Of a stretch of 64,000 nucleotides of DNA, positions 1 through 47,348 are shown piece after piece; within the stretch, counting starts at the first letter, position 1; every line of letters starts with the position of its first letter. Source of the DNA: Candidatus Pacearchaeota archaeon (lineage in GTDB: Archaea; Nanobdellota; Nanobdellia; Pacearchaeales; GW2011-AR1); assembly GCA_018303845.1 (NCBI GenBank), contig JAGVXH010000005.1:6665-70664 (forward strand), written 5' to 3'. The notes under the pieces are model-generated. The model was not told the origin of the DNA, did no database searches, and was given only the letters and a program-made list of their open reading frames with translations. Both the position numbers and the translations under genes were made by a program.

Positions 1-3000
1 CCAAAATTCCTTCTTTTATCGCAGCCTGAACAACCTCAGTTAACTTACTATCAGAAATGGCCTCAGTCTTTATCTCCGCACTCCTAGAATCAGAGAAACC
101 CTTAAGCAAACTTTCTTCCGAAAGACCATATTCCTTAAAAATTTCATCTGCATCACTAGATTTATCCTTAAGGAAAGAATCAGAATAACTCAAATCTATC
201 TTCCCCAAAGAAACATCCTTACTGGGCCAAAAACTAAAAAAACGCGAAAACCCAGTTTTTTCCTTCTCCCTACTCATAATATCATAAGTCCCGTCCCCCA
301 AAGGACTAACATAAATCTCATAGAGAGGACAGCTTTCACCTCCGGCGATAACAGCAGCCGTCCCAACAACATCTAAGTCACAACCTTCCAAGCTCAAATA
401 AATTTTACCAGCATCGTCACCCACAAAATCAAATTCAGCAAAATACTCTTCTTCTTCAGCAGAATCATCCACAGAAGAAACACCGCTTTCCAATTCAACA
501 GCATATCTCAAAAACAAATCCCTATTCTCATTCATCCTATCAACAATTCCACCAATCCCCTTCGCCTCAGCCTCTCTGTAATCAACTCTATTAATATATT
601 CAACAGCCGCCTTTCTCCACTCCCCAGAATTAATCAAATCAACAGTCTTCTGCCCGACCTCCATTTCTCCTCGATAAACAGCATTAACAAGTGCCTTCTT
701 TACATAGACAGGATAAGAATTATACTCTGGGAACAAAACTATTGTCCTCTTAATGTGAACATCAAGTTCATAAGCAAACAAAGCCCTCCCTTCTTCTTCA
801 GTTAACTTTCTATTTCCCGCAATTATATCATCAAAACACTGGGTATTACAATCAAATGCCCTAGAGAAAAGATCCCTTGACTCACTGGAAAGCTGATGCC
901 CAACCCCAATATGCTTCTTCCCATCAATAACATAGACACTTCCGCTAAACCCTTCCCATTTAGCAACATAATCTTTTATTTCCTGCAAACCACTATCAGC
1001 AATCTCTCCAGAATCAACAGGAATTTCTCCCTCATTCAAACAACAACATCCTCCCTCAACATCACTATATCCGCCACCCCTATTAACACAACTCTCTCCC
1101 TCGTCGCCGACAACTTCCCCAAAATCAAAACCTTGCTCATCCTTGCAATATGAATCACAAACCTTCAAAACCTCTCCTTCGCTTCCAGTCACATTAACAC
1201 CAACAAAATCATCCTCACTAACTTCCTCTCTCGCCTCAACAACTTTATCTACAGCATCCTTAATCTTAAATCCAACAAGCAACCGATAAACACTAGCCTT
1301 CAAACTCAATGCCTCAGCCCGATCCCCATTCGTCCCAGCTCCACTCATACTATCATTTCCAATAACCCTATCCAACTCACCAACAATCTTTAATCCATCC
1401 CCAACGGATTTAGAAACAGCCAACTTGTTAATATCCTGCCGAGCCTTAGAAAGCAAAGCCGCAACCCCTTCCAAATCAAGCCTCGCATTATCAATCAAAC
1501 CTCGTCGCTCATCGAGCATTTTAATCGACGCCCCACTAAAAATCTCAATCTTTTCCAAGTCACTCTTAACCGAATCAACATCCAACCAACATCTCAAATT
1601 AACTTCTCCGCAATATCCAACGTCCTTCCACCTAGAACCATGTCGCTGCATAATACCAACATCACTCTTCGACTCACAATAGCCACTAGCTCCACAATAA
1701 AATCCGACACCACATCCCGAACTACCAGACCCCCCAACCTCCGAACCACCGCTACATAAGACGTAGTCTTCTGTAGTAACTCCAGCATCAGGATTAGTCG
1801 AAGCACAAACCCGAACAATTCCTCTCATTGCAATCTCAGGGCTAATAATCTCGTCGGCTCCACTCTGCAAATTCAGCGTAGCCATGGAAAGGGCAGAAGG
1901 ATTCCCGCTAATACATTGCTTCTCCGTAGTAATATCTGTATCAGTCGCCTGCTCCTCAACATACTTCGAACTCAAATAATCCAAACCAAAGTCCGTAGTC
2001 ACCTGTTTAAAACCACATTCTTCCTGAGCATTAATCACAACACAAAGTTCCTTGTAACCACTAGGCGCCGTAAAATCAAGTGACTCATCAGCACTCGAAC
2101 CCGCAGCAATATAACCAGACTTAACAGAAACCTCAGGAGTCGAAGAATAATAACTCGTCGCAGGCGGGTCCCTCAAATAAACCTTATACTGAACACCAGC
2201 ATCCTTCCCAGCATAAATGTGATAATAAACTTTATACTGACTAGTCGACGGAACAGTTGCTCCACTAAAAAGCTTCTCACTAAACTGCGCATAAAACTGA
2301 CTCGGAGATTCCGGAGCCAACAAGTCCTCAATAAAACTTGCACTACCAGGAACACTAGTCCCCACAAATGCCTTACAAACCGAACTTCCAACTTCTTGCG
2401 TACTCCTAATATTAAACGCCTTGAAAGCATTCTGCGCATAAACATCCTTAAAATAAGAAACACTCTGCTTCATCGTATTCCAAGACTGTTCAACCAAAGC
2501 ATACTCCCCACCACCTCGAACCCGTCCTCCGCTAATCGCATATTCAATAACACCGGGAATCATCTGGTCCATCAAAGGCGACAACTGCCTCCAAAAAAAC
2601 TCACACTTGTAAATCGAAGTAATCTGGTCACAAATCCCAATCATCTCTCCTGTCTCAATACTATGGGTCAAACATTCCCTTTCGCTTTTCAAAATAGAAA
2701 GATAAGCATCAAGTCCAGCATGCACACCACTAAGACAAACCGGAATAAAAACTCCCTCCTTCGCATTCGGCAAACACAAAACCAAACTTCCAACAATCCC
2801 AGTCTGAATCACATCACTAACTGGAAACTTCCCGCCAAAATCACATCGGCTAGGAGGACAAATCACCGGGTCACAAACATTAAACATTAACTTACAGTCC
2901 GACGGACTCATAAAATCCTGACACTCAAATCCACCAATCTCACTCATCGGCGCCCCAACTTCAATCATCTCATCAAAAATACCTATCCCTCTTTTCCCAT

Positions 3001-6000
3001 ATTGTTGTGAAGCCTGCTTAATCGCCTCTCTAGCCTTTCCATAAAGTCTACTGACCTCACCAGAACTTATTCTAGGACACGGAATAAAATTCTTAACTTC
3101 CCCAACAGTATTCACATCAAAACTCTGACACAAATCGTCCCCAGTTCCAGATTGCATCAAACCATTCGTCCCAATATTACAAATTTTAAAATACCTAACA
3201 TCAGCCGAAGCAGTATACCCCTGAGGAGAATCATCAATAAAAGTCCCACCACTATTTGCAACCATCGCATACCAGCCACTATTCAAATCAAACGGCACAA
3301 CTGCGGGTAGTCCCTTGTTGTCCCCAGATTCATAATAACTAACCCTAGCCGTCCCTTTTGGCCAAACATTAGAACAATCCTTAGAATCGCTAGCCCCAGA
3401 AAAAACAACCTTATTAAAAAAATCAGGTTTCGCCACCTTTCCCCACTTACTATTATTATACTGATAAACCTCCGCAACCCCACTAACCCCATTCTTATCA
3501 TTTTCTCCCAAAATCAAAACATATTCTTCTCCGCCATAAGTAGCAACTTGAACTTTCTGAGAATCCTTCAACCCAAGCCCACTTAAATAAGAATAATCCC
3601 TAACAGTCTTACCACTTCCCTGAAAAACTTTCGTATCCTTATCAACAATTGTAACAACATCCATAGAAGTCACTCCAGTCCCAAGCTTACCAACCAAATT
3701 ACTAACGGCCTTATTCTTATCCGCCGACGCCCTCTCTGCCAATGCCACATTCCTCAAAGCATCATCCATCTCACTCTTCGCAACACTCTCAACACTCCCC
3801 TTCCCCCTAGCCGCCTCCCATGTCAAAACCGCACGAATCTGCGAAGTCGTATAAAGCGAAGAAGTAGGAACCTTAATCTCCTCATTCCCAACATTCACGA
3901 TAACAGGATTACCCACAATCTGCTTCCTCAAATCTTCCTTATACTTAGTATCATTAGAAATCCCTTCGCCCCCAAACAATCCTCCGCTATCTCCAATATT
4001 CCCCTTCTGTGCAGCTTCCATCTTTGCATTAACTCCACTCAAAACCCCAGTCATCGCCACAACATCCGCATCAATTTCCTTACTCAAAAGATTATAACAC
4101 TGAGTCCGCGTCATATCCGGATGCTCCAATGCACACTTCTTCTTGTACTCTATCATCACCTTGCTACGAGCAGCAGCTTCACCAGAAACTCCCGTAGCCA
4201 TATTCTTAATCATCAGAACCGCACTCGTCGCAAAACACGCCCCCTTAAGACCAGTCACAACATTCCCAAGCCTCTCAACAATTCCCTCCCACTTCGCAAT
4301 CGACACATTCAAATTCTTAATCATTTCAGTCGCCCTCTCCGGACTAAGCTCAATCGCTCTCTTCTCAACTCCAATCCTAAAAGTAAAATCAGCCTCACTC
4401 TTATCATGCTTAACATCCGGAATAAGCGTCACATGCGCAACCTCATTAACACGAATCTCTTCAACATAAAAATCAACACCAGCAAAATTCTCATGCGACC
4501 CTTCATTAATCCAAACAGTCCTAGACCTATCAACTCCTGTAGCCTTCGAAATCTTACTATAAAATCTAACATTAACCCTTCCAGGAGCAATCTTCAAAAT
4601 ATTAACAGTCCCAACATCCCCCCCTAAACTAACATTATCACTCTCATTTAGCCCAGAATAAAAATTAGGCCCAACCTTCAAATCAACAGTCTTCTCTCCC
4701 GAGCTGGCCGCCTTAAAATCCACAACACTAATAGACTTAAATTCATCCCCAACATAAACATTAACAAAACTCTTAGAATAATCCGTCCCATCCATCCTCG
4801 CCCTCATATCAGAAACATAACTAGCACTAGCAGCCAAAGGATACCTCTTCAAAAATAAATCCATCAATTTCTTCTGTGTCATATAATTGCCAATCTTCCC
4901 AGCCAAAACAATCTCCTCATACAAAGCCTCCTCTCCCCAAGTCCCACCAATCTCTTTCTCCTCGCTCCCATAATCTTCAACCAGCTCATCTCTAACAATC
5001 AAAACCGACTTCTCAAAATAAACATCAGAACTCTCATCTTCCAAAACATTACTAACCCCAAAAAAAGTCACACCATTTTCATACTGACCTTTTTCCAAAA
5101 TAAAACCCTCAACTCCTTGAGCCTTCATCCAATCTTCCAATACACCAGTAAAATCCGCCTCACTCCCTTTCTTGTCAGCTAGCTTATTGACCTCAGCATA
5201 AATATTCGTCATCTTCTTAACGCTGCTAATCCCCTTAGTCAAAATAACGATATCTCTTTCCTTCTCGTCAAATCCCTTGGGATACTTCCCAACATAAGAC
5301 AAATAATAATCCTGAGTAACCTTCCCTCCAACCTTCACCTCAACTTCCTCCTCAGCCTCTCCCTTAACAATCTTAAACATAACTCCTTCTCCGCTTAAAA
5401 CTAGGGGCGCAATCTTTCCAGCACCAGAACAAGAAATCGTAATCTCACCATCATTATTCCCACGAACAACCAATTTACTAACAGAACACTTCCCATCCAA
5501 AAATTTACTACCCTTCCTAACCCAAATATTACTCCCATCAACATTTAGCAAAGCCATATCTTCCTGCGTAGTGATATCCGTCAATTTCACCTTTAATCCA
5601 GCCTTACAATAAAACCCAGGCAAATAACTCGAACTACTAGTCTCCCCCTCTTTCAAAGTCAGTGTCCTCAAAACATTATCCTTACTACCCATAACCTGAA
5701 TCCTCGCAACACCATTTTCAACATCCAAAACTCTCAAATATCCTCGACCATTCCAAAAAGAACTAGCCATATAATTCTGTTGCCATTCATTCTCCCCCAT
5801 CGGTTCCAAATAATAATCTCCAGATCCAGTCCCATAAGCTTCCTCCGCATCATAAGTCATCGTGGCAGTCAAATTCCCAAAAATCCATTCCGTCATATTC
5901 GCCTCAACCTTATCCTGCTTCAAAATAATTACAACATAACCAATGTTCTCCAAAGTTGGACTCCCAAGCAAAGTAGAATAAGATTTAACAGCAGCACGAG

Positions 6001-6382
6001 CCGGATGAAAAACAACAGACCGAACACCCTCAGGATAATCTCCCTTAAACGAAATAGACTTAATCGCAGAAACCTTAATCAAAGGATTAACCTTAATCGC
6101 ATACAATTGACAAAAAACCGGAACATTTTGCTCGGCAAGTAAATCACTCGTAACAACCGACGGGCTACATCCTCCAGGCGGAATTCCAATCACAAAATCA
6201 GTCGTAGCATTACACTGTCCATCCTTCATCCCAGAAAGAATAGGCCAATAATTCTCAAAATCCCCAGCATACAAATCATCAAACGTCGGCTGATTCGCCT
6301 GCCAATTACTAGAAGGATTACTATAAGCAAAAACCCCACTCATCACAAAAATCATTCCTAACAAAAACAAAAACTTTTTCAT
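1..6382 (-). CDS. Giant secreted Cys-rich protein (>2127 aa, 3' end outside window) with a GH24/T4-like lysozyme domain at ~490-985
   Basis: Not in the ORF track because there is no in-window stop. Manual translation from ATG at 6382 gives signal peptide MKKFLFLLGMIFVMSGVFA-YSNPS; the same frame was checked at ~4270 (IAKWEGIVERLGN), ~2840 (CPPSRCDFGGKFP) and ~950 (VAKWEGFSGSVYVIDGKKHIGVGHQL). No terminated ORF is reported in this frame. Confidence 0.9.
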   Translation of the reverse strand, partial: MKKFLFLLGMIFVMSGVFAYSNPSSNWQANQPTFDDLYAGDFENYWPILSGMKDGQCNATTDFVIGIPPGGCSPSVVTSDLLAEQNVPVFCQLYAIKVNPLIKVSAIKSISFKGDYPEGVRSVVFHPARAAVKSYSTLLGSPTLENIGYVVIILKQDKVEANMTEWIFGNLTATMTYDAEEAYGTGSGDYYLEPMGENEWQQNYMASSFWNGRGYLRVLDVENGVARIQVMGSKDNVLRTLTLKEGETSSSSYLPGFYCKAGLKVKLTDITTQEDMALLNVDGSNIWVRKGSKFLDGKCSVSKLVVRGNNDGEITISCSGAGKIAPLVLSGEGVMFKIVKGEAEEEVEVKVGGKVTQDYYLSYVGKYPKGFDEKERDIVILTKGISSVKKMTNIYAEVNKLADKKGSEADFTGVLEDWMKAQGVEGFILEKGQYENGVTFFGVSNVLEDESSDVYFEKSVLIVRDELVEDYGSEEKEIGGTWGEEALYEEIVLAGKIGNYMTQKKLMDLFLKRYPLAASASYVSDMRARMDGTDYSKSFVNVYVGDEFKSISVVDFKAASSGEKTVDLKVGPNFYSGLNESDNVSLGGDVGTVNILKIAPGRVNVRFYSKISKATGVDRSRTVWINEGSHENFAGVDFYVEEIRVNEVAHVTLIPDVKHDKSEADFTFRIGVEKRAIELSPERATEMIKNLNVSIAKWEGIVERLGNVVTGLKGACFATSAVLMIKNMATGVSGEAAARSKVMIEYKKKCALEHPDMTRTQCYNLLSKEIDADVVAMTGVLSGVNAKMEAAQKGNIGDSGGLFGGEGISNDTKYKEDLRKQIVGNPVIVNVGNEEIKVPTSSLYTTSQIRAVLTWEAARGKGSVESVAKSEMDDALRNVALAERASADKNKAVSNLVGKLGTGVTSMDVVTIVDKDTKVFQGSGKTVRDYSYLSGLGLKDSQKVQVATYGGEEYVLILGENDKNGVSGVAEVYQYNNSKWGKVAKPDFFNKVVFSGASDSKDCSNVWPKGTARVSYYESGDNKGLPAVVPFDLNSGWYAMVANSGGTFIDDSPQGYTASADVRYFKICNIGTNGLMQSGTGDDLCQSFDVNTVGEVKNFIPCPRISSGEVSRLYGKAREAIKQASQQYGKRGIGIFDEMIEVGAPMSEIGGFECQDFMSPSDCKLMFNVCDPVICPPSRCDFGGKFPVSDVIQTGIVGSLVLCLPNAKEGVFIPVCLSGVHAGLDAYLSILKSERECLTHSIETGEMIGICDQITSIYKCEFFWRQLSPLMDQMIPGVIEYAISGGRVRGGGEYALVEQSWNTMKQSVSYFKDVYAQNAFKAFNIRSTQEVGSSVCKAFVGTSVPGSASFIEDLLAPESPSQFYAQFSEKLFSGATVPSTSQYKVYYHIYAGKDAGVQYKVYLRDPPATSYYSSTPEVSVKSGYIAAGSSADESLDFTAPSGYKELCVVINAQEECGFKQVTTDFGLDYLSSKYVEEQATDTDITTEKQCISGNPSALSMATLNLQSGADEIISPEIAMRGIVRVCASTNPDAGVTTEDYVLCSGGSEVGGSGSSGCGVGFYCGASGYCESKSDVGIMQRHGSRWKDVGYCGEVNLRCWLDVDSVKSDLEKIEIFSGASIKMLDERRGLIDNARLDLEGVAALLSKARQDINKLAVSKSVGDGLKIVGELDRVIGNDSMSGAGTNGDRAEALSLKASVYRLLVGFKIKDAVDKVVEAREEVSEDDFVGVNVTGSEGEVLKVCDSYCKDEQGFDFGEVVGDEGESCVNRGGGYSDVEGGCCCLNEGEIPVDSGEIADSGLQEIKDYVAKWEGFSGSVYVIDGKKHIGVGHQLSSESRDLFSRAFDCNTQCFDDIIAGNRKLTEEEGRALFAYELDVHIKRTIVLFPEYNSYPVYVKKALVNAVYRGEMEVGQKTVDLINSGEWRKAAVEYINRVDYREAEAKGIGGIVDRMNENRDLFLRYAVELESGVSSVDDSAEEEEYFAEFDFVGDDAGKIYLSLEGCDLDVVGTAAVIAGGESCPLYEIYVSPLGDGTYDIMSREKEKTGFSRFFSFWPSKDVSLGKIDLSYSDSFLKDKSSDADEIFKEYGLSEESLLKGFSDSRSAEIKTEAISDSKLTEVVQAAIKEGIL

Positions 6383-6389
6383 GGAACAA

Positions 6390-6421
6390 CCCAAACCCCC
6401 AAACCCCCAAACCCCCAAACC
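6390..6421. repeat. Short tandem repeat (AAACCCCC)x3 plus partial, just upstream of the giant gene start
   Basis: Read directly from the sequence. Confidence 0.85.
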
Positions 6422-6446
6422 ACCACCATGAATAAAATTTTCAATT

Positions 6447-8297
6447 TTATTCATAGTACACCTCGACAATCTCGTCATCAACCCTCTCCGCATTCGCAGC
6501 CAATCCCTCAATACTCGTCGGCAAACCAAACAAAGGCACATTCAAATTCAACTCTTTAGAATTAGCCAAATCTTCCGAAGTAATATATTCCTGCACCTTA
6601 CCGCCACCAACAACCGCAAAATCAATATCCATCTCTGGCATATTAATATCATAACATTTCTCACTCATCCCTCCAAACATTCCAGAAAGACCAGACTCTG
6701 GAACATCCACACATTCCTTTCTACTCGTCGCCGGAAACTTCAAACTCGAACCATCATAAACATGAACACTCACATTATAATAACCCTCAATCAATTCGAT
6801 AGAATCCATTTCAGGATAAAGAACCGTAACAGAATAATCACTCGAAACAAAAGTCACAACGCCACGATCAACTTCACCCAAATCCAAACTCAAATTATAC
6901 TTCTTCTTCAAAACCACATTCGCAAGCATCTCCTCATTAGTAGAAATCTGATATTTAGCCTGAGCATATCCGGGAGCATCAACAATAATAAATCCATTAA
7001 CGCACTGCGGAAATTCTCCCCTCAAAACAGCCTCGCCAGAATAAAGCTTCGTCTCTCCAATCTGACAAACAGCGTCTAAACACTTAAAACTAATCCGCGC
7101 CTCGACTGATTCCAAATCAGTATCATAAGTATAAACATCAACTTTCTGATTCTTAAATTCACAAACCTTAGACTCAATATTTCTGCCATTAGTCGTTGGC
7201 ATCGCCTCTCGTGCCTGATTCTTAGAAATCACAACACCAACAGGAAACTGAAACAATTCTTCATCATCATAAAACTGCACCATCACAGGAAAATTAACAT
7301 CATAAACAAAGTGGTAAGGAACATAACAAAAACCTAAAATCCCCATCCCTTCTTGCAACCCAACAGGTCGCGCAACCTTGTCCCCATACATTTCAATCCT
7401 AGTAGTCCAATCTCTCATATACAAAAAACTCAATTGCTCATCAACATCCAAACCACTATCTTCGACAAAATATTCACGCCCCTTAGACGACAAATCATAA
7501 TAATCCCCATCAAGTCGAATCGAACCAATATTAGCAACCAAGGCATCTTTCAATTCACTGGCGACATTCTCCTCAACAAAAACCCGCGGAACACAACCAA
7601 TCTCAATTCCATCCATCGGGGCATAAAGCCTCAAAACATCCAATGCATAATTCTCCAAAAACATATTAGCCTTTTCGTAATTATAAACTTCTAATGCCAA
7701 ACCAAAAAATTTACCAAGTTTACTCTTGATTCCAAAACTATGAGAACCAACAACAACAGAACTATTTCCCTTAAAAATATTAATCTTATTCAAAACCTCA
7801 ACTTCAATATCTAAATCATTTATACGAACAGCCGTTTGAACATTTTTATCGTCAACAAAAACATCAAAACCTTGCATCTCAAAATCAGAAAAATCACAAA
7901 GTCCAACACGAGCCGAAACATATTCACCAAGTTCATTTTCCATAGAAGTCTTCGTAGGAATATTTTCCCGAAGCATATTATTTCCAGAAACATACATCCA
8001 ATAAGGAACACCCTGTCCCATAAAATCCAAATGACTACTAAAAGGCATATAAGCACTTCCAGGAAAAAATTCTCCGACATCAATTCGCCCTCCCTGTTCA
8101 CCCAAAAGTCTTACCCCATCCTCAGCCTGATCCTGCAAACAAGAAACATAATAATCATAAACAGGCAAAAGCTCTTCAGGAACACTTTCCCCGAAACTTC
8201 CACGCAAAGTAAAATATGCAACTAAAGCCCCAACTATCAACACCGCCAAAATAATAAAAATCGTCACTTGCCCCTTTTTCCTTCTAATTTCTACCAT
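6447..8297 (-). CDS. Class III signal peptide (pilin-like) surface protein, 616 aa
   Basis: N-terminus MVEIRRKKG|QVTIFIILAVLIVG (basic leader, G|Q, hydrophobic helix), then a large Cys-containing extracellular region. Confidence 0.8.
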   Translation of the reverse strand: MVEIRRKKGQVTIFIILAVLIVGALVAYFTLRGSFGESVPEELLPVYDYYVSCLQDQAEDGVRLLGEQGGRIDVGEFFPGSAYMPFSSHLDFMGQGVPYWMYVSGNNMLRENIPTKTSMENELGEYVSARVGLCDFSDFEMQGFDVFVDDKNVQTAVRINDLDIEVEVLNKINIFKGNSSVVVGSHSFGIKSKLGKFFGLALEVYNYEKANMFLENYALDVLRLYAPMDGIEIGCVPRVFVEENVASELKDALVANIGSIRLDGDYYDLSSKGREYFVEDSGLDVDEQLSFLYMRDWTTRIEMYGDKVARPVGLQEGMGILGFCYVPYHFVYDVNFPVMVQFYDDEELFQFPVGVVISKNQAREAMPTTNGRNIESKVCEFKNQKVDVYTYDTDLESVEARISFKCLDAVCQIGETKLYSGEAVLRGEFPQCVNGFIIVDAPGYAQAKYQISTNEEMLANVVLKKKYNLSLDLGEVDRGVVTFVSSDYSVTVLYPEMDSIELIEGYYNVSVHVYDGSSLKFPATSRKECVDVPESGLSGMFGGMSEKCYDINMPEMDIDFAVVGGGKVQEYITSEDLANSKELNLNVPLFGLPTSIEGLAANAERVDDEIVEVYYE

Positions 8298-38945: not shown

Positions 38946-39473
38946 TTACTTAGTGGAAAAAACATAGCCTCCTCCATCTTTCCAAATCTCAACCCGACCA
39001 CCCTCAACAATCTCCCATGTACCAGAACTCAAATCACTAGCATCAATACTATGCACACTGCCAACAATACTCCGAGCAGACATACTCAAATCCAAACACT
39101 CTCTACAATAATTTTGCTCATCCTCTCCATCCCAATAACAAACACAAATCACATTATCCCCAATCTTCTTATTCTTAAAATATTCCTCTCCTTCAACATC
39201 ACCAAAACTAGCAACACTGCCAAAATAAACCAAATAAAACTTCATATCCTTATCCCCCCTATCAAACATAATAACTTCGCCAACCCCGCCCTTATCCGCA
39301 ATACCAACCCCTTCCTCTATAACCTTCAAATATCCCTCACTAATTTTATCGGCTTCATCATACAAACCATAAAAACTAACCGCAAAAATAATCAAAACAG
39401 CAACAACAGCAACAGCAATAATAAGCTCAATAGCAGAATCACTAACCACCTCTCCTCTTTTCTCCATCAACAT
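38946..39473 (-). CDS. Class III signal peptide (pilin-like) protein
   Basis: MEKRG|EVVSDSAIELIIAVAVVAVLIIF; CVC...C..C. Confidence 0.8.
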   Translation of the reverse strand: MLMEKRGEVVSDSAIELIIAVAVVAVLIIFAVSFYGLYDEADKISEGYLKVIEEGVGIADKGGVGEVIMFDRGDKDMKFYLVYFGSVASFGDVEGEEYFKNKKIGDNVICVCYWDGEDEQNYCRECLDLSMSARSIVGSVHSIDASDLSSGTWEIVEGGRVEIWKDGGGYVFSTK

Positions 39474-41290
39474 CGCCTATCCAAAAATTTAGAAATAACA
39501 CTGGCCCTATAAACCTCATCAAAAAAATACTTACCAAGTCTATAAGTCCCCTCATCTCCACTCTCAATCCAACTAGAACCATTCCACGTAACAAGCAACA
39601 CCGGATAATATTCCAAATCAACTCTATGAAAAGCATCATTAACCCAAAACTCAAAATCACTTACAGTCTTTCCTGCCCCAGACTGCTTCAACCCAAACTT
39701 AGATTCTCCCTTTGAAAAACTTAAAACTGCCTTCCCTTCACTTTGCTCAACTCCAACAACAAACTCTTCACCCTTCAAAACAACTTTCTCCCCAGCAAAA
39801 GACTTCTTCAATGCCTCAATATCCGAACCAGAAACACTAGAAGAAACAAGAAGTCTCGTACGCAATCCAGCAAAAATATCTTTCAATCTCGCCAAATCAG
39901 CCTCACTATCCAACTCACCAGAGTCCCCATAATTCTCAGCCGAAACAAAATTTTCATTTTCCAAAACCTTGTAAAACGCAACCTCATACCCAGCATCCTC
40001 CTGACTCATCTTATTTATCCCAAATCTCCATTCCCTCCAAACATTATCAACATCTCCTTTGTGCCTTCCATAAATCTCCGCAAGCATTTTTTCCACAACA
40101 ATCTTATACATCATCTTATCCTTATCGCTATTCAAATCCCCACTTCCCCCATAATCATATCTAGAGACATCCTCCCCAGTCTTAGGATCCTTCTTATCCC
40201 TAGGCATATCCTCTCCCCCCCATTTCAAAAAAGTATTTCCCTGCTCAACAAACCTTTCAAGATATCGCTTCTCCCTGTCATCCCAATTCATTCCTTCCTT
40301 TTTCAAATACCCTTGAGCCAAACTTTTAGTCAACTGAAGCGGGCCATAAGCCGTAGAAGAAGAACCATCTATCTTTGTCCTAATCCAAGGATCATAGCCA
40401 TCTTTCAACCGACCGCTATTATAATCAAAATATCCCCTATGTTCCGCAGCCATAACAGCATCATAAAGAGTCTCCGTTTTCAGATACTCACTCTTCACCT
40501 TCTTATCTTCAACTTTCTCTCCAAAAAGCAAACTCTCTAATCCCTTGCCCTCACCCTTCAAGTACTCAACCCCAACCTTATTCTCAGAAAGTCTCCAATT
40601 AACCTTATCATCATTAAAAATATCTTTAACCTCATCATAAAACAAAGTCAAAGCCTCATCGTCATTATCAATCTCCCTAACAAACTTTCCATTTTTCCAA
40701 AATTCCCAAATACCATTTTGCCAACGTAATTCAACATTCGCATCTCCACCACTTCCATCCCCAATTAAACTAAACTGCATAGTGGAGCCTTCATCCATTA
40801 AATCCCTAACATCAACACTTTGCAAAATACCAATCCCGACATGATAAGCCTCCCAATCAAACAACGCAGAATCTTCACTACCAACAATCAAATTATTATA
40901 TTCTACCCATTCCCCATTTGTCAATTTCCTAAACTTTCCTTTCATCATCTCATAATCATCCAAACCACCTCCCTCAAATGTACAAGTCCTATCACGACAC
41001 TGCTTAAACCCAATATCGTCGTCTTTAATACCCAACTTCTTCAACATCTCACTTCCCAAAACAAAATCTGAAATCCTATAATCGATACACTCCTCAAAAG
41101 GCCCTCCGTTATTACCTAGCGACATCAACATACCTAAAACCTCATTTGCCTTTCCCCCAATCTCCTCTATTTCAGGAATTATCCCATTCCCAATAAGAAA
41201 AGAAAGAAAAAGCAAAACCACAACTAAAATAATAATTTTAATAAGTCTGTTAAAGGCCTCATTCCCCTTTTTCCCATTCAGCAAATTCAT
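39467..41290 (-). CDS. Class III signal peptide (pilin-like) protein with an internal lysozyme-fold (SLT/GH23-like) domain
   Basis: MNLLNGKKG|NEAFNRLIKIIILVVVLLF; internal LYDAVMAAEH...SSSTAYGPLQLT...GDVDNVWREWRFG...Y at ~39960-40480. Confidence 0.72.
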   Translation of the reverse strand: MNLLNGKKGNEAFNRLIKIIILVVVLLFLSFLIGNGIIPEIEEIGGKANEVLGMLMSLGNNGGPFEECIDYRISDFVLGSEMLKKLGIKDDDIGFKQCRDRTCTFEGGGLDDYEMMKGKFRKLTNGEWVEYNNLIVGSEDSALFDWEAYHVGIGILQSVDVRDLMDEGSTMQFSLIGDGSGGDANVELRWQNGIWEFWKNGKFVREIDNDDEALTLFYDEVKDIFNDDKVNWRLSENKVGVEYLKGEGKGLESLLFGEKVEDKKVKSEYLKTETLYDAVMAAEHRGYFDYNSGRLKDGYDPWIRTKIDGSSSTAYGPLQLTKSLAQGYLKKEGMNWDDREKRYLERFVEQGNTFLKWGGEDMPRDKKDPKTGEDVSRYDYGGSGDLNSDKDKMMYKIVVEKMLAEIYGRHKGDVDNVWREWRFGINKMSQEDAGYEVAFYKVLENENFVSAENYGDSGELDSEADLARLKDIFAGLRTRLLVSSSVSGSDIEALKKSFAGEKVVLKGEEFVVGVEQSEGKAVLSFSKGESKFGLKQSGAGKTVSDFEFWVNDAFHRVDLEYYPVLLVTWNGSSWIESGDEGTYRLGKYFFDEVYRASVISKFLDRRC

Positions 41291-41972: not shown

Positions 41973-44150
41973 CTAAGCGAGCCCAGCCAAAGCAACCGCC
42001 CCAACAATCGTCAACCCAATAATAGAACCAGCCGCAACAACCAAATACATAATCATAGAAACCTTCAAATTCTTACCGCCTTCCGAAGTCATCTGAATCG
42101 GATCCCGCCCACTCTTAATAGTCACCAAAGTAGAGGTTAAAATAAAAACGACCTCAATCAAATAAACACCGACAACAATCTGCAACCAATAAGTCGGAAT
42201 CATCTTCGTTACATCAAAAATCGCCAAAATCCCACTAACTCCACCAGCCTCACCAATAGCTCCTCCGCTTAATCCTCCCGAACTAAACATTGAATTCAAA
42301 GCCGAAAGAATTGTAGTAATCATCCCAGACAACCCAACAATAATCCCAGAGAGAAGCGGCGCCAAGAAAGTCATATTACTTTTCATATCCGAAATAATTT
42401 CAGCCAACAAATCATTCAACCTATCATTAATCTTCTTAATACTCTTAACATAATCACTAATCGACATCAATGACCGAGCAGCAACCTGCAACCCCTTCTT
42501 CACCGACTCAACCAAAATCTTCATGCTAGTAGCAACAAGTTGCGAAGGATAAAAAATAACAGCTCCCCTCTTCGGATCAAAAAGCGCCCTTTCCAAACTC
42601 ATTCCAAGTTGCCCAATATTCTCATTCACAATTTTGAAGAACCCTTCAGTTGCAGTGCCTTTAACGCTTCCAGAAACTTTAGCAAAAGCAATCTCCGCCG
42701 GACTCCCGTCCCCAATCCTATTTCCCAACTGGAACAAAGACGATGTAAACTCAGCTTCAACTTCCTTGTATTTATTTCTCGTAACTAAAATTTCCTCAGT
42801 TCTCTCTTTTGCCCCCACAACAAAAATAACAGCAATAGCAGCAGGAATACAAAGACTCATCAAAAGAGCACCACTACCAAAAGGACCAGACAAATTTCCA
42901 GCCGAATCAGTCAAAATCCCAAACACGCCTCCTCCGCCCAAAAACCCAAGCCCAATAGAGGACCAAGCATAATCCCTTGTAGTCCCAAGCCAAATCGGAA
43001 CAGGTGTATATCGCCAAAGAAAAGGAATTAGCCCAATAACAAAAAGCGGAAAAGCCAAAACCGCACCCTTCCAATATCCAGCATTACTCTTATATTTAGA
43101 ATAAAGCGGTGTCTTCTGCAAAACTCCAGACTCACCATACCCACCAGGACGCTTCATCATAACATTTTCAGTTAAAGCAATCACCATAAACGGAATCAAC
43201 ACATTAAAAATCAAAAGCACATGATACCAAGCAATCGCACCACCAAGCATAGTAGAAGCCAAAGGCAAAATCGCAAGAGCCAGCGTAGGCAAAACAATCC
43301 CAAGCATATAAACATTAGTAAGCGGAGCCTTAGCCTCATGTGTATACTTAAGCATCTTATCATAAACCCCATCCAAAATAACCTGCAAACTTTTTTCCAA
43401 AGTAGCAATTCGCCGCGCCTCATCAGGTTCATATAAACTCGATTCAATCAAATGAAACGCCTCGACAAATTCCAAACTATAATCTTTCCATCGAAGTAAA
43501 TAATTATCAATAGACTCTTTTATAGTAGAAAACTTCCCTACCTCGACATCCCAAAACACCTTACGAAAATCAGTACTCAAAGGTGCCCGCAAATGCTCCG
43601 AAGCAAAAGCCACAGCCTTCTCAAAGTTACTAGTATGCTTCATATAAATCACAATATACAAAATAGCAGGAACCATCTCAGCCGAAGCACTAAGTCTCCA
43701 TCGCAAAGCAAGCCTTTCCGGAGTCTTCGAAGAATAAAAAAACAAAAAGATTGAAAAGACGAAAACCAAAAACAAAAACATCATAGAAAAAACACCAGTC
43801 AATAACCACACCGCAACAAAAAAAGCAATCCCACCAAAAAGCGAAAGAAACAAAAGCATAGTAGAAAAAACCAAAACCTCACCAGCTGTAACATTCAAAT
43901 GCGCAATGTCAATAGCCTCATCAATCCGTGCCTTATCTTTTTCACCAACCTTAATAGAAAGAATATTCCCCATCGACTTACACCATCTCTCATACCGCGA
44001 AAATTCAGGCGCCATCTCTCCTTGAAACTTCTCGTAACTCTTAGAGAATCCCGCCCCCCGTCCCCCATCCCCCACAGCCTTATCATATCCCTTCATCTGC
44101 CTTTCTATCTTCGCCCCATACTTATTCAAAATATCTTCAGTACTAACCAC
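41973..44150 (-). CDS. Type IV pilus/T2SS-F (TadC-like) membrane platform protein with two F domains
   Basis: Two repeats of a cytoplasmic helical domain plus three TMs (FEKAVAFA..., PAEIAFAKV..LERA); next to the pilins. Confidence 0.82.
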   Translation of the reverse strand: MVSTEDILNKYGAKIERQMKGYDKAVGDGGRGAGFSKSYEKFQGEMAPEFSRYERWCKSMGNILSIKVGEKDKARIDEAIDIAHLNVTAGEVLVFSTMLLFLSLFGGIAFFVAVWLLTGVFSMMFLFLVFVFSIFLFFYSSKTPERLALRWRLSASAEMVPAILYIVIYMKHTSNFEKAVAFASEHLRAPLSTDFRKVFWDVEVGKFSTIKESIDNYLLRWKDYSLEFVEAFHLIESSLYEPDEARRIATLEKSLQVILDGVYDKMLKYTHEAKAPLTNVYMLGIVLPTLALAILPLASTMLGGAIAWYHVLLIFNVLIPFMVIALTENVMMKRPGGYGESGVLQKTPLYSKYKSNAGYWKGAVLAFPLFVIGLIPFLWRYTPVPIWLGTTRDYAWSSIGLGFLGGGGVFGILTDSAGNLSGPFGSGALLMSLCIPAAIAVIFVVGAKERTEEILVTRNKYKEVEAEFTSSLFQLGNRIGDGSPAEIAFAKVSGSVKGTATEGFFKIVNENIGQLGMSLERALFDPKRGAVIFYPSQLVATSMKILVESVKKGLQVAARSLMSISDYVKSIKKINDRLNDLLAEIISDMKSNMTFLAPLLSGIIVGLSGMITTILSALNSMFSSGGLSGGAIGEAGGVSGILAIFDVTKMIPTYWLQIVVGVYLIEVVFILTSTLVTIKSGRDPIQMTSEGGKNLKVSMIMYLVVAAGSIIGLTIVGAVALAGLA

Positions 44151-44234: not shown

Positions 44235-47200
44235 CTATGACTTCAATTTCAAAAATTGTTTTTTAACATTCTTCCAATAAATTATTACAAAAATCAACAA
44301 GACAACAAGAACAACAATCAATCCCGCAATAAATCTATTCCCGCCTATCGTATCAAAAACTACATTCCCAGTAATAATTCCCTTATCCATTTCCTCCGTC
44401 TTCACAACAGGCATTTCTTTGGCAGGTACCACGTCGACACCAGCCACAGCTCCAGTAGATGCAACCGGAACACTCTCACTAATAGACGTCAAAAGAATCT
44501 CAGCCCTACCAGCAGAAACACTCTTAAGATAAACATCCAAATCATAAACTCCATTACCATCAACATCCACCTTCTTTGTCTGCCCGGGAACAAGGTCAAA
44601 AGTAACAGGGGTACTAGAAACCGTAATCGTCACCTTATCGCCAGATATACTATCGACTTTCAATGTATGACTCTGTCCAGCCAAATTAAAATCAACCTTG
44701 TAACCTCTGCCTAAAGAAATATCATACCCTGTAGAAAGATCTGTTGCAGAAGGACTATATGTGGGATAGCTTCCACTACTACCTGAAGAACCAGAAGAAG
44801 CAGCATCTACAGTATAAGTAGTTTCAGCTAATACCGAATTTCCAGCATAATCAACAGCGGTACAATTCGTAGTAATGGTCCCAGCAACAGAAGTGGAGGG
44901 ATTCGTAGTATAAGTGATCGAACTTACTCCCGAAGATGCATCAGTTGCAGAACAGGTACAAGTAACGGTGCCACCGATTTGAACAGCAGAATCGCTACAG
45001 GCAAAAGTTATAACAGGATCAACACTATCTAAAAGAATAGTATAACGCCCACTGTTATTCGCATTTCCAAGAGTATCATTTGAAGTTGCATTATAATAAT
45101 AAACTCCATCAGTCAGATTAGTAAAATTAATAGATGTGGGGGAACTTGTACCCAGGCTTGAATTAATTAAAACTACAGAGGAATTATATAATCTAATAAA
45201 AATAGTACTCAATGTCCCTGAATCTGCAGCCGTTACATTAATAAAAATATTTGAGGTGGAAACATTAGAATTATTCGCACTAGGAGACACAAATACTATA
45301 GAAGAAGGACTCGTGGTATCTATATTAATAGTTCTCGTAGCCGTAGAATTAATATTCCCAGCAATGTCTACAATAGTCACATTGTAAGTATGAGTAGTAT
45401 CACTTAACCCTGTCCAATTAATTGTATGAGTAGCATCAGTGTATGTCGTAGTATTAACAATTCCCGTCGTATTATATAATCTAAATGTTATATTAACTTC
45501 ATTTACTTCTGTAACACTCGCATTGACATAAATATTAGAGACGGACACATTAGCATTATCAACAGAAGTTCCAGTTCCATAATCAATTGCTGGAGTCGTA
45601 GAATCTATTTGAACAACATATGAATCATTTAGCCCAAATGTACCCAACGTATCATTTGCATAAACAAAAATTGTATTATTCCCATCTGCTAATCCCGTCA
45701 AAGCAATTAAGCTAGTATTACACCAACCAGAAACATATGCAATTGTTTGGTTAGTTCCATTTGCATTAACAACACAAGCACTTCTGCCAGTACCTTCATT
45801 GGTAAGAGAAATATTTAACGTTAAAGTTTGCAAATTTGTCTTTGTTGTTCCATTTACATAAAGTGGCAAAGAAATTCCAGGAGGAGTTGAAGTAACATTA
45901 CTAACTGAAATAGTATTAGCGATTAATGTAACTTCTTTTTGCCCCAATGCTCTTCCAGTCAAAACTGCACCGTTCTGTAACGCAATAGTTGTTGTATCCG
46001 GCCCGCCTAAAATATTTCCTTTAAACTGAGAAGTTGTTCCAAGCGTTGTTGTTCCAGCAACTGCCCAAAAAATATTACTTGCTTGTGCGCCACCAGAAAG
46101 AACTACACTTGTAGCAGAACTAATATCCAAATTTCCAGATATACTAAAAATCCATACATCGTCAGAATCCCCATAAAGTGTAACATCTGTAGGTATTGTT
46201 ACTCCGGTAGTCCAATCATAAAAACCCGCCACCAAAGTCATTCCTCCAATATTTCCTGTACCTAATTCATTAGCAACAGGATTTGTTCTTCCATTGGCAT
46301 CCGTCCAAGCAGCTTCCATTGCACTTACAGCAGCAGTCAAATCAGCAGGAGTTGTACAATTTAAAGTACTATAGTCAGCCGCATAAACATTCCCTGACAC
46401 TAAAGACGAAGTTGAAAAACATTCTGAAGAATCTAAAGATAATCCAAATCCTTGAATAAAAGATGCAGCAGCTGGGCTCACTCCAATATCTCCAATAATA
46501 GCAGTAGTTCCAGTCGTAGTTATTTGAGTCTTTGAAAGAATTGTAAAATTCGCCGCTGTTCCCAAATCAACTGTTGCTTGTGTATATAACGAACCATTTA
46601 TTTGAACAACATAAGAGTCATTGAGGCCAAAATTATTAAGCGTATCATTTGCATAAACATTAATTGTGTGGTTCCCATTAGCTAGGTTTGTTAAAGCAAT
46701 CGAAGTAGTATTACACCAACCAGAAACATATGAAATTGTTTGATTTGTTCCATTTACATTAATAATGCAAACACTTATGTTCGAACTAGCATCTACAGCT
46801 GAAATATTAAGTGCCAAAGTTTGAAAACTTGTTTTTGTTGTTGCATTTACATATCCTGGCAATGCGATAACTGGTCCTGTCGTATCATTTACCGTTACTC
46901 CTATAGTTGAAACAACAGTCCATCCAGTAGAATTCGTTGTTGTAATAGTAAAATTATAATTTCCTGGACTTGAAGCAGTAGCATTAAACCAAAAATATGC
47001 CAATGTTCCATTTTCTACCAAGCTAACAGTATCATTATTCCAAATTAAAGAAACAGTAGTATTAGAAAATAAAGAGCTAGTAACATTTGTTCCGTTCGAA
47101 TCTGCCGCAAAAGAAAATACACTAGGAAATGTAATATTAACTCCGGTTATATTATCAAGTGTATCTATATTACTAACCGTTATATTATAAACCGACTCAA

Positions 47201-47348
47201 CAGATTCATTAACAGAAAATGCACTAAGGCCACTAGTTGGCGCAACAGTCAAAGCTGCAAAAGCAAAAGTAATAGATAAAAAAATTCCCAAAAATAAAAA
47301 AATTCCCAAAAATAAATTATAATTATTTTTAATTAATCTTTTTTTCAT
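44235..47348 (-). CDS. Large Thr/Ser/Asn-rich surface protein with an ice-binding DUF3494 domain, Ig-like repeats and a C-terminal TM anchor
   Basis: VDLGTAANFTILSKT.IT......I.GDIGVSP, GNVYAADY, VWIF.ISGNL, LSGGAQASNIFW.VAG..TLGT..QFKGNILG, L.GRAL (~45905-46580). Confidence 0.92.
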   Translation of the reverse strand: MKKRLIKNNYNLFLGIFLFLGIFLSITFAFAALTVAPTSGLSAFSVNESVESVYNITVSNIDTLDNITGVNITFPSVFSFAADSNGTNVTSSLFSNTTVSLIWNNDTVSLVENGTLAYFWFNATASSPGNYNFTITTTNSTGWTVVSTIGVTVNDTTGPVIALPGYVNATTKTSFQTLALNISAVDASSNISVCIINVNGTNQTISYVSGWCNTTSIALTNLANGNHTINVYANDTLNNFGLNDSYVVQINGSLYTQATVDLGTAANFTILSKTQITTTGTTAIIGDIGVSPAAASFIQGFGLSLDSSECFSTSSLVSGNVYAADYSTLNCTTPADLTAAVSAMEAAWTDANGRTNPVANELGTGNIGGMTLVAGFYDWTTGVTIPTDVTLYGDSDDVWIFSISGNLDISSATSVVLSGGAQASNIFWAVAGTTTLGTTSQFKGNILGGPDTTTIALQNGAVLTGRALGQKEVTLIANTISVSNVTSTPPGISLPLYVNGTTKTNLQTLTLNISLTNEGTGRSACVVNANGTNQTIAYVSGWCNTSLIALTGLADGNNTIFVYANDTLGTFGLNDSYVVQIDSTTPAIDYGTGTSVDNANVSVSNIYVNASVTEVNEVNITFRLYNTTGIVNTTTYTDATHTINWTGLSDTTHTYNVTIVDIAGNINSTATRTINIDTTSPSSIVFVSPSANNSNVSTSNIFINVTAADSGTLSTIFIRLYNSSVVLINSSLGTSSPTSINFTNLTDGVYYYNATSNDTLGNANNSGRYTILLDSVDPVITFACSDSAVQIGGTVTCTCSATDASSGVSSITYTTNPSTSVAGTITTNCTAVDYAGNSVLAETTYTVDAASSGSSGSSGSYPTYSPSATDLSTGYDISLGRGYKVDFNLAGQSHTLKVDSISGDKVTITVSSTPVTFDLVPGQTKKVDVDGNGVYDLDVYLKSVSAGRAEILLTSISESVPVASTGAVAGVDVVPAKEMPVVKTEEMDKGIITGNVVFDTIGGNRFIAGLIVVLVVLLIFVIIYWKNVKKQFLKLKS

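Follow-up and report, generated by a model that had tools for sequence, protein, structure and literature searches.

Does nature hold a T4-type lysozyme with a histidine at the place of Thr26, and would such an enzyme act as a retaining transglycosidase? The question is raised by the distal part of a giant open reading frame (ORF) on the minus strand of a 64,000-nucleotide stretch of DNA from a Candidatus Pacearchaeota archaeon (the window; G000:C3:6665-70664, where G000 is the window's own genome). An earlier note, made from the letters of this DNA, had seen there the catalytic strand of T4 lysozyme (T4L) with Glu11 kept, His in place of Thr26 and Asp20 shifted, and had suggested a domain that remodels or transiently bonds to peptidoglycan. 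What it took as established about the engineered T26H variant is borne out by the literature. The structures 1QT8, 5XPE and 5XPF are T26H mutants of T4L (PMC5606550, citing Kuroki et al. 1995, 1999); the mutant is retaining, with His26 as nucleophile and Glu11 as acid/base, and its transglycosylation is faster than its hydrolysis, while the wild type has no transglycosidase activity. According to the same source, Asp20 is of lesser importance in T26H, and Thr26 of T4L occupies the place of the nucleophile Asp52 of hen lysozyme. The archaeal protein combines His for Thr26 with Ile for Asp20 and a shortened loop; judged from the aligned sequences, this combination is fixed throughout a small orthologue clade of archaea of the Woesearchaeota/Pacearchaeota type.

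The minus-strand frame reads ...KDYVAKW-E-G-F-S-G-S-V-Y-V-I-D-G-K-K-H-I-G-V-G-H-QLSSESRD..., the codons being gaa for Glu (955-953), gat for Asp (925-923) and cat for each His (913-911 and 898-896); the coordinates and residues of the earlier note agree with these codons. The residues on which the argument turns are the following.

953..955, minus strand: Glu1863, by profile alignment and column counts the equivalent of T4L Glu11 (putative general acid or acid/base)
926..928, minus strand: Ile1872, in the canonical Asp20 column (Glu+9) of the MAFFT alignment; HMMER puts a gap here
923..925, minus strand: Asp1873, at the tip of a beta-hairpin in the predicted model (strands 21-27 and 30-34, turn D28-G29)
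911..913, minus strand: His1877, in the Thr26 column by the ungapped match of H-I-G-x-G-H to T4L 26-31; proposed nucleophile
896..898, minus strand: His1882, equivalent of T4L His31 (His in 8/8 His-type and 63/64 other rows)
836..850, minus strand: Cys1898 and Cys1902 (C-x3-C), by column counts specific to the His clade of the giant protein

The column counts come from an alignment of 72 rows, in which the Glu column is Glu in 7/7 His-type and in 64/64 other rows. The residue-26 column is His in all 8 His-type rows, as against T in 58, D in 4 and A in 2 of the 64 others, and the Asp20 column is Ile in the 7 His-type rows that cover it as against Asp in 58 of the 64 others. The alignment columns thus agree with the assignment of His to Thr26 and of the kept Glu to Glu11, and the conservation of the histidine in homologs, which the earlier note had proposed to examine, extends to every relative of this type. 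The spacing that it read was also right: Glu to Tyr is 7 as in T4L, Glu to His is 14 instead of 15, and an Asp stands at Glu+10 instead of Glu+9. Its shifted Asp20 fared less well. The canonical Asp is gone and the loop is one residue shorter, as claimed, but the shifted Asp is not conserved: the Asp1873 position reads D, G, N, S, D, N, E and D across the 8 His-type rows (D in 3 rows by the column count), and since it is acidic in only 4 of 8 it offers no reliable substitute for Asp20. Both Cys positions are Cys in 7 of 8 His-type rows and almost never in the others, and may form a disulfide, to judge by their pattern. Further clade-specific changes are D108S (T4L Asn101 column) and D114E near the cleft, A88T and F95Y, while the cleft residues R112, G113, N126, E136 and Y137 are invariant in the His-type relatives. 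The partner of His1882 is the Glu at domain residue 80, which is aligned with T4L Asp70.

The likeness to T4L reflects true homology. A phmmer search of the domain against all PDB sequences returned T4 lysozyme only, with 1qt8, the T26H mutant, as top match at an expectation value (E) of 4.8e-4, and a profile of six His-type relatives (A1) matched 1qt8 at E 6.3e-10 across T4L residues 5-145. In the A1 alignment Glu1863 pairs with Glu11 and H-I-G-x-G-H with T4L 26-31, and a single gap falls within the 19-25 loop; the single-sequence phmmer alignment likewise pairs H-I-G-x-G-H with T4L 26-31 without a gap. An AlphaFold2 model built with 72 sequences reached a predicted local distance difference test score (pLDDT) of 95.7 and a predicted template modelling score (pTM) of 0.88. 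T4 lysozyme structures rank first in Foldseek, at a template modelling (TM) score of about 0.6, and VIA-align gave Z 12.8-13.4 with a root-mean-square deviation of about 3 Å over 136-152 residues against T4L, R21, DLP12, SpmX and AbLys1. PF00959 is present in relatives of 36-49% identity, three of which are named GH24 (glycoside hydrolase family 24) lysozyme by their source. The domain itself does not reach the PF00959 gathering score in a Pfam scan, PF00959 has no match anywhere in G000 at E 0.01, and PHROGs gave a single weak match (E 0.0014) to a 2087-position family of unknown function. Because of the PDB sequence matches, the model with its fold matches and the PF00959-bearing relatives, we take the domain, on sequence and model, to be a divergent but genuine GH24-type fold of the two-lobed T4L kind.

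How the residue-26 variants are distributed was followed in a census. An exhaustive search of representatives matched 651 proteins with E no higher than 0.001, and 218 with a limit of 1e-10; the best 150 of the 651 were used; word-based searches added 32 relatives, for a census of 182 rows (query plus 181 relatives). A regular expression recovered the full motif in 131 of the 182 rows, the other 51 being fragments or rows of different spacing; 32 of these 51 were inspected, and most have T-I-G-x-G-H. The 131 rows divide as follows.

97/131 rows: canonical E-x8-D-x5-T
7/131 rows: E-x13-H without Asp at Glu+9 (the window, P0005, P0038 and P0154-P0157)
6/131 rows: Asp at residue-26 but none at Glu+9, in a loop that is longer by one or two residues
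2/131 rows: Ala at residue-26
1/131 rows: Val at residue-26
1/131 rows: Ser at residue-26
the rest of the 131 rows: Thr with other spacings

The fragment P0003 likewise has His, which brings the relatives of His type to 8/8 with His. A tree of 156 rows unites the seven His rows of giant-protein type in a clade with a support of 100 in the Shimodaira-Hasegawa-like approximate likelihood ratio test (SH-aLRT) and a stem of 0.6, nested among canonical T15D lysozymes (E-x8-D-x5-T). P0038, a His protein of 213 residues, is placed elsewhere, in an unresolved part of the tree. An approximately unbiased (AU) test on a self-chosen subset of 44 rows, with 112 rows left out, did not reject a single His clade that includes P0038 (p-AU 0.546); therefore a double origin of the short-loop His form is not claimed. 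Both traits could be scored in 125 rows, of which 90 have Thr with Asp, 18 Thr without Asp, 17 another residue without Asp and none another residue with Asp, so that Asp at Glu+9 is absent from 17/17 non-Thr rows and from 18/108 Thr rows.

Some other relatives depart from the canonical pattern in their own ways. P0028, P0101, P0130, P0139, P0141 and P0163 (212-293 residues) form a clade with Asp in the Thr26 column (..G-E-I-D-I-G-M-G-H..); with no Asp at Glu+9, they would present formally a Glu/Asp pair like that of hen lysozyme in a GH24 fold. P0027 and P0056, listed with this clade, have Ala at residue-26. In P0020, a protein of 6756 aa, a short-loop lysozyme domain at about residues 5463-5635 keeps the Thr but lacks the Asp (E-x13-T); its loop may represent an intermediate stage. 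Beyond this domain lies a stretch which, by eye, resembles an M23-type peptidase motif.

The domain belongs to a giant protein whose parts lie as follows.

2..6541, minus strand: giant ORF, 2180 codons within the window and 2345 overall, continuing to G000:C3:6168
6382-6380, minus strand: Met of the probable true start (MKKFLFLLGMIFVMSGVFA...); P0154-P0157 begin at the matching hydrophobic leader
6326..6382, minus strand: predicted signal peptide (MKKFLFLLGMIFVMSGVFA), from sequence reading and hydropathy; a conserved YSNPSSNWQANQPTFD block comes next
1292..6325, minus strand: conserved, putatively extracellular body, about residues 73-1750, without Pfam family, delimited by orthologue identity
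1007..1291, minus strand: acidic, Cys-containing linker, residues 1751-1845, where conservation falls to 0.10-0.29
497..1006, minus strand: divergent T4-lysozyme-type (GH24-like) domain by sequence and predicted fold, residues 1846-2015, 170 aa
2..496, minus strand: first part of a C-terminal extension (about 330 residues in all) that is absent from the orthologues
G000:C3:6387-6617, minus strand: SLT (GH23) lytic-transglycosylase domain, residues 2198-2272, just beyond the window, closing the extension

The N-terminal leader is predicted to be a signal peptide; only two places pass the threshold of the hydropathy scan, the leader and, barely, residue 1239. In the mean over P0154-P0157, most 50-residue blocks of residues 54-1750 are 41-91% identical, with a few dips to 14-26%, and the lysozyme domain, at 47-69%, lies below most body blocks. 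The full giant frame counts 55 Cys. No Pfam match was found for the whole in-window frame at E up to 0.1, nor a usable Atlas match for body residues 1150-1600. The SLT domain matches PF01464 at E 7.7e-10 with 38.8 bits, over a gathering cut-off of 21.3 (44.3 bits in the genome search). Its sequence shows the E-S and G-L-M-Q motifs. The architecture of body plus His-lysozyme recurs in P0154-P0157, which stop right after the lysozyme domain with no SLT behind it; so does P0005, whose N-terminus looks cut. This recurrence rules out an assembly chimera or a sequencing error, and since Thr becomes His only through two base changes, and the orthologues have the same His, the residue is no sequencing slip.

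The carrier is widespread in its order. Its N-terminal 400 residues were found in 287 of 301 genomes, including 79 of the 82 high-quality ones, and frames with a matching N-terminus measure about 1550-2630 codons where whole. Searched against the order (301 genomes) and the phylum (401 genomes), a profile of the His-lysozyme matched a giant frame in G000 only, and it matched two further loci in the species-representative collection. Twenty orthologous giants from 20 genomes of the order (L027-L046), 19 chosen for long frames and one short, were compared with the window's protein: the homology, over a body of about 1,700 residues, stops at residues 1660-1800, and variable tails lie beyond. Seven of the 20 tails carry Pfam murein hydrolases.

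1 of 20 tails: Amidase_2 with Peptidase_M15_4
2 of 20 tails: SLT with Amidase_3
3 of 20 tails: SLT alone
1 of 20 tails: Amidase_3 alone
13 of 20 tails: 12 without match and one with a sub-threshold ankyrin, 92-903 aa long

These 13 family-less tails may conceal more wall-active domains. No GH24-like domain was found in the 20 other giants by hmmsearch at E up to 1. The tails of this order-wide giant thus include interchangeable murein hydrolases, and the window's version is a His-type lysozyme domain followed by SLT.

The assembly of G000 comprises 1.09 Mb in 10 contigs and is 80% complete. Archaeal genes surround the giant ORF (TFIIB, ribosomal protein S3Ae, RadA, SRP54), the nearest relatives are from Candidatus Pacearchaeota or Candidatus Woesearchaeota, and the host is a small-genome archaeon of DPANN type. 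This part of the idea that the domain would suit an attached symbiont holds; the fit itself is better explained by the context, an interchangeable murein-hydrolase tail on a giant surface protein. A genome search of the 80% complete assembly found no Mur ligase, and a Pfam search of G000 found no SLT domain beyond the giant protein's own. Because G000 as assembled is without a Mur ligase, the target is most likely the peptidoglycan of another organism, most likely a bacterial one, and for the same reason an autolysin acting on the host's own wall is unlikely. That the domain is of T4 lysozyme type and that its target is murein we hold, taken together, to be very probable.

Elsewhere in and around the window other large proteins are encoded on the minus strand: a 1037-aa protein with Ice_binding and Big_13 domains at 44235-47348; three ORFs of 607-725 aa without Pfam family at 6447-8297, 39467-41290 and 41973-44150; and, just past the window's start, a GLUG-motif protein of at least 1319 aa (L002:2-3958).

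By analogy with T26H, we propose a double-displacement scheme for the window's domain. In the scheme, Glu1863 would protonate the beta-1,4 bond between N-acetylmuramic acid (MurNAc) and N-acetylglucosamine (GlcNAc), and His1877 would attack C1 from the alpha face to form a glycosyl-imidazolium intermediate. Glu1863 would then activate either water, giving retaining hydrolysis, or a sugar hydroxyl, giving transglycosylation. The retaining and transglycosylating chemistry with a His nucleophile is offered tentatively, at somewhat less than an even chance; the best explanation taken whole, a real divergent muramidase domain of T4 type with T26H-like chemistry, we place slightly below even. A wider reading, which we regard as rather doubtful, is that GH24 has left the inverting mechanism more than once by gaining a nucleophile at residue-26, in the absence of the Asp20 base or, in one case, alongside it, this nucleophile being His in the giant clade, in P0038 and separately in L009, and Asp in the E-I-D-I-G-M-G-H clade. 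If it were true, GH24 would have in the His form its first retaining member from nature, and an imidazole would serve as nucleophile in a natural glycosidase; the Asp-26 clade would copy the Glu35/Asp52 pair of hen lysozyme; and the tip of the symbiont's giant surface protein would re-join glycan or hold it covalently, opening or gripping the bacterial wall without lysis.

Several observations weigh against the His-nucleophile scheme, and a number of them speak for an ordinary inverting muramidase, in which His1877 would position or deprotonate a water molecule, taking over the jobs of Thr26 and Asp20, to give alpha-anomers and no transglycosylation. That His1877 would face C1 is read from the ungapped alignment and from nothing else, and a Pfam scan of the 170-aa domain by itself, with E allowed up to 10, gave no family. 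Compared with T4L the loop lacks one residue, and the imidazole may therefore sit differently; the shorter loop could leave space for a water between His and C1. The gap is placed at Asp20 by HMMER and later in the loop by MAFFT, with no Asp at Glu+9 either way. An acidic residue occurs within Tyr+1 to Tyr+5, at varying position, in 8/8 His-type rows, so a carboxylate may yet serve as the base. A small secreted T4-type lysozyme from the same archaeal family (L009:1402-1992, minus strand, in G288; a 197-codon frame, ..YYDTGGIPHVGVGF..) reads H-E-G-...-Y-Y-D-T-G-G-I-P-H-V-G-V-G-F, that is E-x8-D-x5-H, and thus combines His with the canonical Asp, a natural equivalent of T26H with exactly its spacing; it is so far a single case, and three genus-mates (L010, L011 and L012) have Thr at this position. 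The association of Asp loss with a non-Thr residue has no statistical weight (only 2 independent supported pairs, p = 1), therefore correlated evolution is not claimed. Finally, the difference between retaining and inverting might not matter biologically for a tail that cuts walls. The fold and the Glu, moreover, match inverting GH24 enzymes. The inverting enzyme nevertheless appears unlikely to us: T26H is a retaining enzyme whose imidazole comes to within 2.7 Å of C1 of the modelled adduct (PMC5606550), and in the window's clade the canonical Asp column is a conserved Ile.

The remaining alternatives dispense with the histidine as catalyst, with catalysis or with murein. The replacement of two of the three GH24 triad residues could point to a lytic transglycosylase working with Glu alone in the T4L fold, where the C6 hydroxyl of MurNAc would attack to yield 1,6-anhydro-MurNAc and His would only shape the site. 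Lysozyme-fold enzymes with Glu alone do exist in the lambda type (PMC2976769), and lytic transglycosylase tails are favoured in this protein family. We think this decidedly improbable, as a His that merely stood by would not have to be invariant, an SLT domain is already on the same protein, and neither Pfam nor PDB searches show sequence likeness of the domain to lambda-type or SLT enzymes. A weak or dead wall-binding module, holding glycan, perhaps through a long-lived adduct, and tethering the giant while SLT or others cut, would accord with the incomplete triad, with the lower identity of the lysozyme domain relative to body blocks of up to 91%, and with the attachment proposed for the giant family by Castelle et al. 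(PMC8204110). Against it stand the invariance of Glu, His and the five cleft residues named above, and the lysozyme domain being the final module, with no SLT to do the cutting, in P0154-P0157 and P0005; it strikes us as improbable. The lysozyme superfamily also includes chitinases and chitosanases (PMC2976769) and the known hosts of DPANN archaea are archaea, which would suit a substrate other than murein, for instance a beta-linked amino-sugar polymer of archaea or eukaryotes (pseudomurein or chitin-like glycans, say). The SLT domain on the same chain and the orthologous tails with murein-specific muramoyl-L-alanine amidases and an M15 D-Ala-D-Ala peptidase make such a substrate very improbable.

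Compared with known systems, the domain shares with engineered T26H the fold, as predicted, the Glu11 equivalent and, by alignment, a His at the residue-26 column. It differs in being natural, in being only about 20-23% identical to T4L, in its 19-25 loop one residue shorter, in having Ile where T26H keeps Asp20, and in the extra C-x3-C pair. Its fold is like that of canonical GH24/PF00959 enzymes (T4 E, R21, DLP12, SpmX) at Z about 13, with two of their three triad residues replaced. With the retaining hen egg-white lysozyme (GH22, Glu35 and Asp52) it would share, by analogy, a double displacement with a nucleophile at the Thr26 place; that enzyme belongs to another family, and its nucleophile is a carboxylate where the window's candidate is an imidazole. 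The giants described by Castelle et al. (2021) are extracellular proteins of up to 3,000 aa with an SLT domain, specific to Woesearchaeota/Pacearchaeota and proposed to attach to bacterial walls (PMC8204110). The window's giant resembles their fam00969 by description, with its 2345 codons, predicted leader, SLT domain and lineages; it bears a His-type GH24 tail, whereas the word lysozyme is absent from the text on fam00969 in that article (PMC8204110). The bacteria-killing peptidoglycan hydrolases of Strock et al. (2025, PMC12352652) are likewise murein hydrolases secreted by a murein-less archaeon, but they are haloarchaeal enzymes with no giant carrier, and GH24 and SLT do not occur in the main text of that paper. 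Full-text literature searches found the engineered mutant only and no description of a natural His26 GH24 enzyme. Thus, the giant carrier, its SLT tail and archaeal murein hydrolases were already known; new are the conserved natural GH24 lineage that has exchanged Thr26 for His and lost the canonical Asp, the single His case with the Asp kept, and the Asp-26 clade.

T26H is the textbook case in which one engineered residue turned an inverting glycosidase into a retaining one that transglycosylates. Should a conserved lineage in nature have undergone this exchange and given up the canonical Asp, evolution would have made use of the switch, and inversion may not be general in GH24. The window's domain is a testable candidate for a glycosidase with a His nucleophile, possibly useful in muropeptide synthesis. 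For the biology of DPANN archaea, it adds one more enzyme type to the interchangeable murein-hydrolase tails of an order-wide giant protein, and hence lends further weight to the view that these archaea engage bacterial walls physically.

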